From: an uncultured Gammaproteobacteria bacterium
Lineage (GTDB): Bacteria; Patescibacteriota; Microgenomatia; UBA8517
Assembly (NCBI GenBank): GCA_964494885.1
Contig: CAZBTH010000001.1
Span: 46,319-110,318 of the forward strand
Direction of reading: 5' to 3'
Length of the DNA: 64,000 nt
Below, piece after piece: positions 961-37,960 of the stretch; position 1 is the first letter of the stretch; each line of letters starts with the position of its first letter. A program made the translations under genes and the position numbers. Below the pieces are notes generated by a model. It ran no database searches and had not been told where the DNA came from. It worked only from the letters and a program-made list of their open reading frames with translations.

Positions 961-1033
961 AGCGGGTGAAAGGATTCGAACCTCTGACCTTCTCCTTACA
1001 AAAGGAGATGCTCTCCCACTGAGCTACACCCGC
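961..1033 (-). tRNA. tRNA-Thr (UGU)
   Basis: Acceptor GCGGGTG/CACCCGC, D-arm GCTCAGTGGGAGAGC, anticodon loop ttTGTaa, T-loop GGTTCGAAT. Confidence 0.85.
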
Positions 1034-12285: not shown

Positions 12286-14003
12286 AACAACTTCTCGAAT
12301 TCTTTTAAACTTCGACTATTTATTATATCATCCTTCTCACACCAACCGCGCCTGGCAACAGACACTCCGAATGTCATGTTGTTCATTCCGTCAATATGAT
12401 GAGCGTCTGTACCAAATGACAATTTCACACCGTGTTTCACGGCTTCGCGGACTAATGTGTCGGGAAGGTCTAAACGCATAGGGTCGCAGTTAATCTCTAT
12501 CCACTTACCGTTACTCTTGCAATATTCGAATATTTCGGGCCAGTTTAGTTCAGCTCCTTCCCGCTCATTTAATTTGCGTCCCGTGGGGTGAGCAAATATT
12601 TTTACTTTGGGATGGGAAAGAGCTGTAAGAACCCGTCTTGTTTGAACCTCGCGCGGTAGATCAAAATTGGAATGAATTGAAACTAAAGCAAAATCCAAAG
12701 TTTCTAAACCTTCTTCGGGAACAGGCAGACTGCCATTGGATTTTATGTCAATTTCAAGGCTATTGAATACCTTTTTTACTCCTTTTGTACCCGATTTAAT
12801 TATTGAGCAGTTTATTTGTTCAACCTTTTCCTTCTTCGCTTTTAGCTTTTCGATAATTTGCAAATCTGTATGGCCTTTCTGCGAAGGATTGTGTTCCGTA
12901 AACGCTAAATATTCATATTTGAGTTCGTCAGCTTTTTTGACAATCTCCTCCATGGAACTAGCTCCCAAATCGTGACTCGTTTCTATATCAAAACTTGAAT
13001 GAATTTGTAGATCTGCTTTTACTTCATTTAATTGAATAAGTTTTGGTAATCCAGGTCGAAGACCCTGAGCGCTTCGTTGGGCCGCCTCAATTTCTCCGGT
13101 ATCCTCCCTTAATTCCGGCTCGATATAATCCAAATCCAAAAAATTATAAAAAGATTTTTCATCTTTAAACGTTCTTAGCTTTTCACTTTTACTTTTTAGC
13201 TCCTTTATTCCCTTTTCCGACAAACTTAATCCCTTTTTCAACGCATATTCGCGTAAAGCAATATTATGGTGTTTACTACCTGTGAAATGTTGTAGAGCTG
13301 CTCCGTATTGTTCGATCGTTGAAACCAAAAGATCGACTTGGATATCCCCCGGAGTTAAAATTGAAGCGGTTGTATCACCAGCTTCGATTATTTTTTGGCT
13401 ATTCGGGTATTTTGTGAAATGTTCTATTACTTTTACCTTTTCACTTTTACCTTTTACCTTTGCTAAAATGTCAATGTCTCCAATCGTCGAAGCCTGTCGT
13501 CTTAAACTGCCCAAGGGGTCAATTTGAGTAACATTCTTATCTTTTTTCATCCAATCAATAATGAGTCCGGCGGTCGTTACAGCATATGGAAGTAAATGAC
13601 GTTTACCTTTTTTCTCCCTTACTTCAACTTCTTTGAGGAGTTTTTTAACCTCGGACGGTTTACCCTGAGCGATTAAGCGAAGGGCGGTTTTGATACCAAT
13701 TCCGGGCAACTCCATTAACTTGAAGGCTTCTTTGGGAATATCCCTCATAAGTTCATCAAAATGTTTGGAATGTCCTGTTCGAAAGATTTCGTCTAAATGT
13801 TTACTTATACTTATACCTATACTGGGGACTTGGTCTAACTTTCCATCATCCCAAAGGTCTTTAAGCTCGCTTGTGGCGTGTTCTACAGCGTCAGCCGCTC
13901 GTTCATATGCAATTATCTGAAACTTGTATTTAGCTTGGTCTTTTAACTGATATGCAGCGGCCACATCGCGAAGCAATTCTGCAATTTCCAAATTAGTCAT
14001 CAA
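12270..14003 (-). CDS. polX: PolX-family DNA polymerase with C-terminal PHP domain
   Basis: N-terminal TNLEIAELL...HhH segments GIGIKTALRLI; C-terminal PHP-like His/Asp motifs. Confidence 0.8.
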   Translation of the reverse strand: MMTNLEIAELLRDVAAAYQLKDQAKYKFQIIAYERAADAVEHATSELKDLWDDGKLDQVPSIGISISKHLDEIFRTGHSKHFDELMRDIPKEAFKLMELPGIGIKTALRLIAQGKPSEVKKLLKEVEVREKKGKRHLLPYAVTTAGLIIDWMKKDKNVTQIDPLGSLRRQASTIGDIDILAKVKGKSEKVKVIEHFTKYPNSQKIIEAGDTTASILTPGDIQVDLLVSTIEQYGAALQHFTGSKHHNIALREYALKKGLSLSEKGIKELKSKSEKLRTFKDEKSFYNFLDLDYIEPELREDTGEIEAAQRSAQGLRPGLPKLIQLNEVKADLQIHSSFDIETSHDLGASSMEEIVKKADELKYEYLAFTEHNPSQKGHTDLQIIEKLKAKKEKVEQINCSIIKSGTKGVKKVFNSLEIDIKSNGSLPVPEEGLETLDFALVSIHSNFDLPREVQTRRVLTALSHPKVKIFAHPTGRKLNEREGAELNWPEIFEYCKSNGKWIEINCDPMRLDLPDTLVREAVKHGVKLSFGTDAHHIDGMNNMTFGVSVARRGWCEKDDIINSRSLKEFEKLLKSPS

Positions 14004-14023
14004 CTGTTATAATACACACTATT

Positions 14024-14297
14024 GGGGTCGTAGCTCAACTGGCTAGAGCGCTTCCCTGTCAAATGTGGCAGCTCCTAGTAGTAATATTAGGATGAAAAAC
14101 CGGGCTAATTCGGGGAAACCCCAATCGAAGTCGAAGGGTAATCCCGAGCTAAACTCTGATTAAATCGGAGAAATGTGTAGAGACTATACACCCGGCGTCC
14201 TGAGTGAAATCGAAGGATGATGAGATAGTCCAAGCTTTTTGGAAACAAAAAGATTTTCGCACGGAAGAGGTTGCGAGTCCGAATCTCGTCGATCCCG
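14024..14297 (+). tRNA. tRNA-Asp (GUC) interrupted by a group I intron (exons 14024-14059 and 14260-14297)
   Basis: Exons fold as acceptor GGGGTCG/CGATCCC plus G73, D-arm GCTC..GAGC, anticodon stem CTTCC/GGAAG, loop CTGT|CAC, T-loop TCCGAAT. The exon U before the intron and the intron-terminal G fit group I splicing. Confidence 0.75.
14060..14259 (+). ncRNA. Group I self-splicing intron (IC3-like) in the tRNA-Asp anticodon loop
   Basis: Conserved core GUGUAGAGACUAUACACC (P7 5' strand, very close to the Azoarcus/Anabaena tRNA introns) and GAGAUAGUCCAAG (P7 3' strand). P9 hairpin CUUUUUGGAAACAAAAAG. The internal guide GGCAG pairs with exon CUGU|C. Terminal G at 14259. Confidence 0.7.
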
Positions 14298-14413
14298 CCC
14301 CAAATTCCCATTGACTTCGGTTTGATCATAGTCTAAATTCAGGCTAACTTCGGTGCTACCAAAAAGGGTGGCTTGCCCCCCGAAGCTTCAGCGAAGGGGG
14401 GTGAATTTATTTG

Positions 14414-15070: not shown

Positions 15071-15141
15071 GCGGGTGTAGTTCACCGGTAGAATGCGTCC
15101 TTCCCAAGGACGAGAAGGCGGTCCGATTCCGCTCACCCGCT
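15071..15141 (+). tRNA. tRNA-Gly (CCC)
   Basis: Acceptor GCGGGTG/CACCCGC, D-arm GTTCACCGGTAGAAT, anticodon stem CGTCC/GGACG, loop ttCCCaa, T-loop TCCGATT. Confidence 0.75.
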
Positions 15142-15255
15142 CAAGTATTGGTGTGAACTGTCTCTATATTACAACATGAGAAAAACTATAAAATCCAACT
15201 TATTTCGTAGATGTCGACAGCGGTTAGTTGGCGTGCTGTATTTGAAACTTTAAGG

Positions 15256-25311: not shown

Positions 25312-25383
25312 GCCAGTGTAGCTCAATGGTAGAGCAATCCCATCGTAAGGGAAAGGTTAGAGGTTCAAGTCCCCTCACTGGCT
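25312..25383 (+). tRNA. tRNA-Thr (CGU)
   Basis: Acceptor GCCAGTG/CACTGGC, D-arm GCTCAATGGTAGAGC, anticodon loop atCGTaa, T-loop GGTTCAAGT. One mismatch in each of the anticodon and T stems. Confidence 0.65.
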
Positions 25384-25422
25384 CATGCGTTGGCGGGCGG
25401 GTAAACCGCAGTTACTAAAATC

Positions 25423-37882: not shown

Positions 37883-37888
37883 CTAATG

Positions 37889-37960
37889 TGGACGACGTTG
37901 GAATCGGACCAACGACCTTTCGAATGTGAGTCGAATGTTCTGCCACTGAACTAGTCGTCC
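37889..37960 (-). tRNA. tRNA-Val (CAC)
   Basis: Acceptor GGACGAC/GTCGTCC, D-arm GTTCAGTGGCAGAAC, anticodon stem TTCGA/TCGAA, loop ctCACat, T-loop TCCGATT. Confidence 0.8.

Follow-up and report, generated by a model that had tools for sequence, protein, structure and literature searches.

Does a tRNA gene that is broken inside its own anticodon still supply a working tRNA, and how did it come to be broken? These questions are raised by positions 14024-14297 (+ strand) of the window, by which we mean the whole 64,000-nt stretch of DNA that was analysed. There, a tRNA-Asp(GUC) gene consists of exons of 36 and 38 nt around a 200-nt group I intron. With default settings, ARAGORN reported seven other tRNAs and no tRNA-Asp in the 64-kb window; default tRNA finders miss the interrupted gene, and such genomes therefore seem to lack tRNA-Asp. 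The element is very probably a compact intron without an ORF, of class Asp.4Ug and with a P1-P9 architecture like that of the Azoarcus intron, located in the window's only tRNA-Asp(GUC) in a host with a tiny genome from the Woesebacteria/Microgenomates (CPR/Patescibacteria).

The interrupted tRNA-Asp gene

The gene and the region immediately upstream contain the following features.

13985-14013 (+): promoter-like site, TTTCCA, 17-nt spacer and TATAAT at 14008-14013, with TG at 14005-14006 (10 of 12 in a consensus scan)
14024-14059 (+): 5' exon, nucleotides 1-35 (ARAGORN on the joined exons; same as the intron-less gene of locus L101)
14060-14259 (+): group I intron (Rfam RF00028, 90.3 bits; our own covariance model R1, 206.5 bits; covariation)
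14260-14297 (+): 3' exon, C36 to G73 (sequence, ARAGORN on the joined exons, identity with L101)

The 5' exon (GGGGUCGUAGCUCAACUGGCUAGAGCGCUUCCCUGU, 36 nt, with the 3' end ...CCCUGU) holds acceptor, D arm, the 5' half of the anticodon stem and the loop nucleotides C32, U33, G34 and U35. The intron starts with CAAAUGUGGCAG and ends with UUUUCG, its terminal (omega) G being 14259. The 3' exon (CACGGAAGAGGUUGCGAGUCCGAAUCUCGUCGAUCCCG, 38 nt) starts with CACGGAAG, ends with ...CCCG at the discriminator G73 and holds C36, A37 and C38, the 3' half of the anticodon stem, the variable loop, the T arm, acceptor and the discriminator G. The break lies between U35 and C36, inside the anticodon. CCA is absent from the 3' end of the gene, where GCCCCA comes next. 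The tRNA carries what we take to be the Asp identity elements, namely G73, G34-U35-C36, C38, G10 and G2-C71. The promoter-like site is located ~10 nt upstream of tRNA position 1, and the 25 nt upstream are identical in the intron-less L101 allele; we infer that this site may function as a promoter.

ARAGORN called tRNA-Asp(gtc) from the joined exons and also, in intron mode, from the interrupted gene. The joined exons are identical at 74 of 74 positions to the uninterrupted tRNA-Asp of L101, which scored 63.1 bits with the Rfam tRNA model, and because of this identity the content of the exons is fixed. The original prediction of a tRNA-Asp(GUC) built from exons of 36 and 38 nt with G73 was borne out by both results. 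It had also proposed a search with the Rfam Intron_gpI model (RF00028) and named a region left unscored as one possible refutation. The model instead matched 14044-14252 (+) over its full length (1-253) with 90.3 bits and E=8.7e-22, where the gathering score is 50; this was the sole match in the 64-kb window.

Because the intron and the second exon each start with C, introns at 14060-14259 and 14061-14260 are inseparable by deletion mapping. Group I introns follow a rule of U at -1 and a terminal G, and this rule together with the position of the U•G wobble therefore led us to choose 14060-14259. The break point given by the intron mode of ARAGORN was in the wrong place and was rejected; the junction was set by the U-1/omega-G rule and the intron-less alleles.

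Two features of the window tRNAs were observed in passing. T-loop position 55 is C instead of the near-universal U in three of the eight (UCCGAAU or UCCGAUU), namely the tRNA-Asp (T loop UCCGAAU, 14276-14282), a tRNA-Gly CCC at 15071-15142 and a tRNA-Val CAC at 37888-37960 (- strand). Many relatives share the C55 variant in their tRNA-Asp, whether or not the gene carries the intron, and the L004 group has G there (UGCGAAU). The tRNA at 961-1033 (- strand) was listed as tRNA-Tyr(gta) in the ARAGORN table and as 'tRNA-?(Gln|Thr)(ttgt)' in the detailed output. It has an 8-nt anticodon loop (UUUUGUAA), a 73-nt body, a short variable arm and discriminator U, no homologue among the retrieved loci, and a body resembling that of the window tRNA-Thr(CGU) at 25312-25384. 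It is probably a tRNA-Thr(UGU) with an extra loop U, or the result of a homopolymer sequencing error.

Fold and proposed splicing of the intron

We drew the P1-P9 structure by hand, and each drawn pair is a standard pair. All elements are on the + strand.

14056-14060 with 14067-14071 (+): P1 hairpin, CUGUc with GGCAG (sequence; U•G kept in 84 of 86 relatives)
14065-14071 (+): internal guide sequence GUGGCAG (read from the sequence)
14073-14092 (+): P2 hairpin with a GUAA (GNRA) loop at 14081-14084 (compensatory changes at 7 of 7 modelled pairs)
14100-14104 with 14191-14195 (+): P3, CCGGG with CCCGG (compensatory changes at 5 of 5 pairs, 94.5% paired)
14110-14115 with 14142-14147 (+): P4, enclosing P5/P5a at 14118-14139 (compensatory changes at 6 of 10 pairs; MFE fold)
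14148-14149 with 14175-14176 (+): P6, GC with GU, within 14148-14176
14154-14170 (+): P6a hairpin (compensatory changes at 6 of 6 pairs)
14180 and 14182-14186 with 14226-14231 (+): P7, G14180 and GACUA with UAGUCC, A14181 bulged (97% paired)
14197-14218 (+): P8 hairpin (compensatory changes at 7 of 7 modelled pairs)
14235-14252 (+): P9 hairpin, CUUUUUG-GAAA-CAAAAAG with a GNRA loop (compensatory changes at 7 of 7 pairs, 95.6% paired)

P1 is short, with four exon pairs plus one, and its U35 (14059)•G14068 pair, the sole wobble in the guide pairing, marks the 5' splice site. The guide pairs unbroken with the entire future anticodon loop: GCAG with C32-U35 (CUGU) and GUG (14065-14067) with C36-A37-C38, the CAC at 14260-14262 of the 3' exon, which forms P10. 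Across the aligned rows with a 3' exon CAC, P10 is GUG:CAC in 39 and a 2-bp AUG:CAC in 10 more. P7, the helix that binds guanosine, is engaged in a pseudoknot with P3, and P5 is minimal, without a P5abc-type extension. The unconstrained MFE fold alone recovered P1, P2, P3, P4, P5, P6a, P8 and P9 (z = -4.75 against shuffles).

The longest + strand ORF overlapping the intron is 36 aa, and no homing endonuclease ORF is present in the 200 nt, which sets the intron apart from endonuclease-bearing mobile group I introns and agrees with the ~200-nt, endonuclease-free element first described. Gene callers may place spurious ORFs on such an intron; an example is the 74-aa minus-strand ORF at 14105-14329, which had no Pfam match.

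To assess the fold we built a covariance model (R1) from six Asp introns and the hand-drawn structure. Model R1 matched 96 sites in the retrieved loci and, in the window, the target as its sole match (206.5 bits). In the alignment of these 96 introns, which was fitted to our own structure, 88.6% of cells were paired compared with 71.7% in shuffles, and 39 of 49 modelled base pairs had compensatory changes; the observed values were reached by 0 of 500 shuffles. When partners were slid by one to three columns as a control, pairing dropped to 36-50%. All modelled pairs of P2, P3, P6a, P8 and P9 had compensatory changes, and L2 is GNRA in 92 of the 96 sequences, L9 in about 75. P7 is 97% paired and essentially invariant (89 distinct sequences), an invariance that, like that of P4/P6, is partly by construction because the patterns used to retrieve relatives fix parts of P4/P6 or P7; P2, P3, P5, P6a, P8 and P9 were free of this constraint. 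The compensatory changes across relatives indicate that the fold is under selection.

The insert at 14060-14259 has the properties of a group I intron (RF00028), namely a score over threshold, a P1 with U•G, a terminal G with P10, and a P3-P9 core with covariation. Together with the intron-less allele, the Rfam match of 90.3 bits, the U-1•G pair, P10 and the covariation uphold the earlier placement of a group I intron between nucleotides 35 and 36, and the P7, P9, guide pairing with CUGU, U•G and terminal G on which that placement drew were all found. The group I intron is real and probably functional, and from its intact conserved group I elements we infer that it would be self-splicing.

Two ambiguities could favor a junction after C36 (intron 14061-14260) or after U33: the C that starts both intron and second exon leaves a 1-nt uncertainty against the intron-less allele, and the ARAGORN intron mode sets the break at yet another position. 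However, an intron at 14061-14260 would have C at -1 and C, not G, at its end. For a junction after U33, U33 pairs Watson-Crick with A14070, the sole U•G in P1 is U35•G14068 (84 of 86 relatives), and an unchanged 3' site would leave an anticodon loop of 5 nt. P10 (GUG:CAC) is compatible with 35/36 only, and we consider a junction elsewhere extremely unlikely. Location in a tRNA anticodon loop is also what would be expected of a protein-spliced intron of the archaeal/eukaryal type (bulge-helix-bulge), an interpretation to which we give practically no credence: position 35/36 is not the canonical 37/38, the 200 nt form a group I core by Rfam match and covariation, and the host is bacterial. We rejected this assignment, as the insert is a group I ribozyme at 35/36.

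It may be that the intron is a decayed remnant that no longer splices, that the interrupted gene is a tRNA pseudogene and that a second tRNA-Asp works elsewhere. Our view of the genome is a 64-kb window, beyond which a second intact tRNA-Asp is possible, and the T loop UCCGAAU is non-canonical. We nevertheless find a pseudogene very unlikely, as the core helices are all intact in the window, the Rfam score is far over the cut-off, the compensatory changes in relatives point to selection on the fold, the exons equal the intact gene of a relative with its T loop included, and the 64-kb window has no other tRNA-Asp. In CPR genomes of about 1 Mb, moreover, tRNAs are usually single-copy. A real group I intron could also need a protein cofactor or RNA chaperone in the cell. 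Dependence on proteins in vivo is frequent among group I introns, and here P1 is short and P5 is reduced to a minimum that lacks an extension of the P5abc type. On the other hand, the Azoarcus tRNA-Ile intron, of similar architecture, self-splices efficiently, and conservation of the GNRA loops L2 and L9 suggests that the tertiary structure is stabilized from within the intron; we regard a need for such a factor as unlikely, and it is compatible with the main explanation.

For a self-splicing Asp.4Ug intron, the RNA elements described above can be arranged into a pathway whose chemistry would be that of established group I introns. A pre-tRNA would be transcribed from the promoter-like site at 13985-14013, and the intron would fold into P1-P9 with the GNRA loops L2 and L9 free for tertiary docking. 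The guide GCAG on exon CUGU would display U35•G14068, and free guanosine bound in P7 would attack the bond between 14059 and 14060. The terminal G14259 would then take over the G site while GUG 14065-14067 lies on exon CAC as P10, and the 3'-OH of U35 would attack between 14259 and 14260, so that the exons would be ligated and the anticodon loop would again read CUGUCAC. The ligated 74-nt product would read ...CCCUGUCACGGAAG... across the junction. Because the break lies between the anticodon bases U35 and C36, the unspliced transcript would be unable to act as tRNA-Asp, and charging and decoding would therefore be carried out by the spliced RNA only. Should no other tRNA-Asp gene exist in the genome, reading of all aspartate codons would depend on a ribozyme that restores the anticodon by splicing.

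Place among known tRNA introns

The scan of 81,441 genomes in Williams 2020 (bioRxiv 10.1101/2020.01.27.920355) brought the tally of known tRNA/group I combinations to 21, up from 4; the four classical classes are reported there to be IC3. The supplementary alignment of that work contains a class Asp.4Ug with the seed Wba81, where the code stands for tRNA-Asp interrupted behind nucleotide 4 of the anticodon loop, with U preceding the intron (-1) and G at its end (omega). The window intron has each of these properties (tRNA-Asp, insertion after nucleotide 35, U at -1, omega G) as well as homology to Wba81. By that alignment it is a further member of an already catalogued class, and the site is not new. 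The location had originally been called unusual; this holds against the four textbook tRNA hosts alone and fails for an unrecorded site, as the supplementary alignment of Williams 2020 lists it as Asp.4Ug. Because the class was already listed there in 2020, current understanding is unchanged.

Wba81 is identical to the intron of L008 (Candidatus Woesebacteria bacterium GW2011_GWF1_31_35, CP011214.1). It shares with the window intron the host tRNA-Asp(GUC), the junction CUGU/CAC after nucleotide 35, U-1, the terminal G and the guide GGCAG, and the core strings GGCUAAUUCGGGGAAA, AAUCCCGAGCUAAA, AAAUGUGUAGAGACUAUA and AGAUAGUCC are identical. Both loci have PolX as a neighbour and come from one bacterial group, and the introns can be aligned over their full length, with long blocks of identity in the core. 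They differ in having ~70% identity over aligned intron columns, with compensatory changes in P2, P5, P6a, P8 and P9. The P10 guide is GUG (3 bp) in the window and GAG (2 bp) in Wba81, and the T loop is UCCGAAU in the window but UUCGAGU in the Wba81 tRNA.

Among experimentally studied introns, that of Azoarcus sp. BH72 tRNA-Ile(CAU) (205 nt, 'Ile2.5Ug') is likewise compact (~200 nt), ORF-less and located in a bacterial anticodon loop, and the core strings AAUUCGG.GAAACC, GUGUAGAGACUA and AUAGUCC are common to both. The Azoarcus intron belongs to subgroup IC3 and consists of P1-P9 only, with GNRA loops on P2 and P9. Its insertion is after nucleotide 36 rather than 35, in another tRNA and another phylum, and its self-splicing and structure were shown experimentally, whereas those of the window intron are predicted. 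The window intron resembles the Azoarcus intron and other tRNA introns in Williams' alignment, and its relation to subgroup IC3 is one of resemblance.

The cyanobacterial and plastid tRNA-Leu(UAA) intron ('Leu.3Ug') is also an ORF-less anticodon-loop intron that has stayed at one site throughout a lineage and has a patchy presence, but is inserted at 34/35 in another host tRNA and is usually longer. Both how it evolved and how it splices have decades of research behind them. Tentatively related work also exists closer to the present host: a 2025 preprint by Nakagawa et al. reportedly treats tRNA group I introns in Patescibacteria and may overlap with the present finding.

Also related are the introns catalogued, by the alignment of Williams 2020, as Asn.4Ug and Tyr.4Ug in other CPR genomes (for example L001, L002 and L049; L012 and L023), which share the 35/36 site and a CUGU:GCAG P1. 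Model R1 placed them in the same family at 65-180 bits, lower than the Asp members. Their hosts are instead tRNA-Asn(GUU) and tRNA-Tyr(GUA), and the P10 guide finds only a weak match in their 3' exons (UAA and AAA).

Relatives, synteny and history of the intron

A genome scan with the core pattern retrieved at least 50 loci, mostly from CPR bacteria among the matches listed. At least five of the genome matches listed are tRNA-Asp genes with an intron at 35/36 (L004, L007, L008, L009 and L035); most of the others listed are members of the same family at 35/36 of tRNA-Asn(GUU), and a few lie in tRNA-Tyr(GUA). From metagenomes, an Asp-specific 3' pattern also retrieved at least 50 loci, and among the matches listed at least 47 are complete tRNA-Asp genes split as CUGU/...G/CAC, with introns that all end in G. 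Intron lengths of the Asp class were 173-220 nt among the matches listed, so that the family comprises a range of very small group I ribozymes found in nature. The Asp intron class is common in Woesebacteria/Microgenomates-like metagenomes.

Brute-force U/G splicing with ARAGORN was too permissive when unfiltered and became usable once a 5-bp anticodon stem and a 7-nt loop were imposed. In intron mode, ARAGORN called L001, L003, L005, L013, L015, L025, L030, L039-L041, L045, L048 and others tRNA-Thr(tgt) split after U33. These can also be read as tRNA-Asn(GUU) split after U35, the ambiguity arising because CU/GU...GUG/UAA fits both; the P1 U•G, U1-A72 and G73 favour Asn. We reassigned such matches to Asn(GUU) by wobble position and tRNA body and excluded them from the Asp examples. 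The 'Thr.2Ug' seed in Williams' alignment also starts cuguc...GGCAG, and the same Thr/Asn ambiguity may apply.

Several relatives merit separate mention. The 173-nt tRNA-Asp introns (L066, L069, L071, L073 and L082) keep P1-P9 with P5, P6a and P8 shortened and are shorter than the 205-nt Azoarcus intron; the two tested, L071 (72.3 bits) and L066 (57.6 bits), passed the Rfam threshold. At L018, L029, L022, L042, L028, L037, L038 and L047 the Asp-derived model matched outside tRNA genes at 65-82 bits, and in L037, L038 and L047 the match begins within sequence that seemingly codes for a CxxCH (HNH-like) motif. L007 (CAZYCE010000002.1, 'uncultured Gammaproteobacteria') has a Woesebacteria-type tRNA-Asp intron in a PolX/LemA/LysM neighbourhood with about 65-71% nucleotide identity to the window, and the bin seems to have been given a wrong taxonomic label.

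The gene next to the window tRNA-Asp encodes a family X DNA polymerase (PolX) with a PHP domain, whose homologues come from named Woesebacteria or Microgenomates, the best being 84% identical (L101). We chose twelve PolX-homologue contigs blind to the intron. All twelve share the order LysM / tRNA-Asp / PolX / LemA / M48 peptidase / GatC / GatA; the tRNA-Asp(GUC) is uninterrupted in ten and carries the intron in two (L106 and L109). L101, the closest relative found, has no intron, and its 25-nt flanks on each side of the gene are identical to those of the window. Conversely, PolX adjoins tRNA-Asp in all 24 intron-bearing loci with enough flank. As far as these contigs represent their genomes, the intron occupies one conserved syntenic site, divergent from PolX, and is present in a minority of related genomes. 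Such matched alleles with and without the intron provide material on gain and loss.

Intron identity correlated with PolX identity (Spearman 0.55, 276 pairs), a correlation whose p-value is inflated because the pairs are not independent. These patterns would fit an old intron that was inherited mainly vertically, was precisely lost several times and may now and then have been transferred. A recently mobile element, passed laterally among Woesebacteria and among tRNAs with a CUGU loop, would instead explain why L101, the closest by PolX, lacks the intron despite identical exons and flanks, why only 2 of 12 syntenic loci have it, why the intron of the outlier L076 is 86% identical to that of the window with a PolX identity of 69%, and why the same family is found at 35/36 in tRNA-Asn and tRNA-Tyr of other CPR bacteria. 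However, an endonuclease ORF is absent, intron similarity follows host similarity overall (rho 0.55), and PolX is adjacent in all 24 loci with enough flank. A phage origin or vector was also considered and rejected: the Asp-specific pattern had no match in IMG/VR, and blastn against GenBank phages returned nothing. On balance, recent lateral mobility has an appreciable but minority chance of being correct.

As a rather doubtful extension, we tentatively suggest that the family may still move at the RNA level and that its 173-nt members would undercut the Azoarcus intron, which, at 205 nt, is commonly named as the smallest self-splicing group I ribozyme in nature. Such movement would proceed by reverse splicing or exon recombination, not by an endonuclease. 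It is suggested because the guide GCAG matches the CUGU common to G34-U35 anticodon loops, and because the family occurs at 35/36 in Asp, Asn and Tyr genes and near-identical alleles differ by the presence of the intron alone.

Two of the syntenic contigs differ in local arrangement. In L109 and L112 the tRNA-Asp is on the strand of PolX and not divergent from it, and a small local inversion is therefore indicated. In L109 there is also an overlap between the called PolX start and the end of the intron match, so that this start may have been mis-called.
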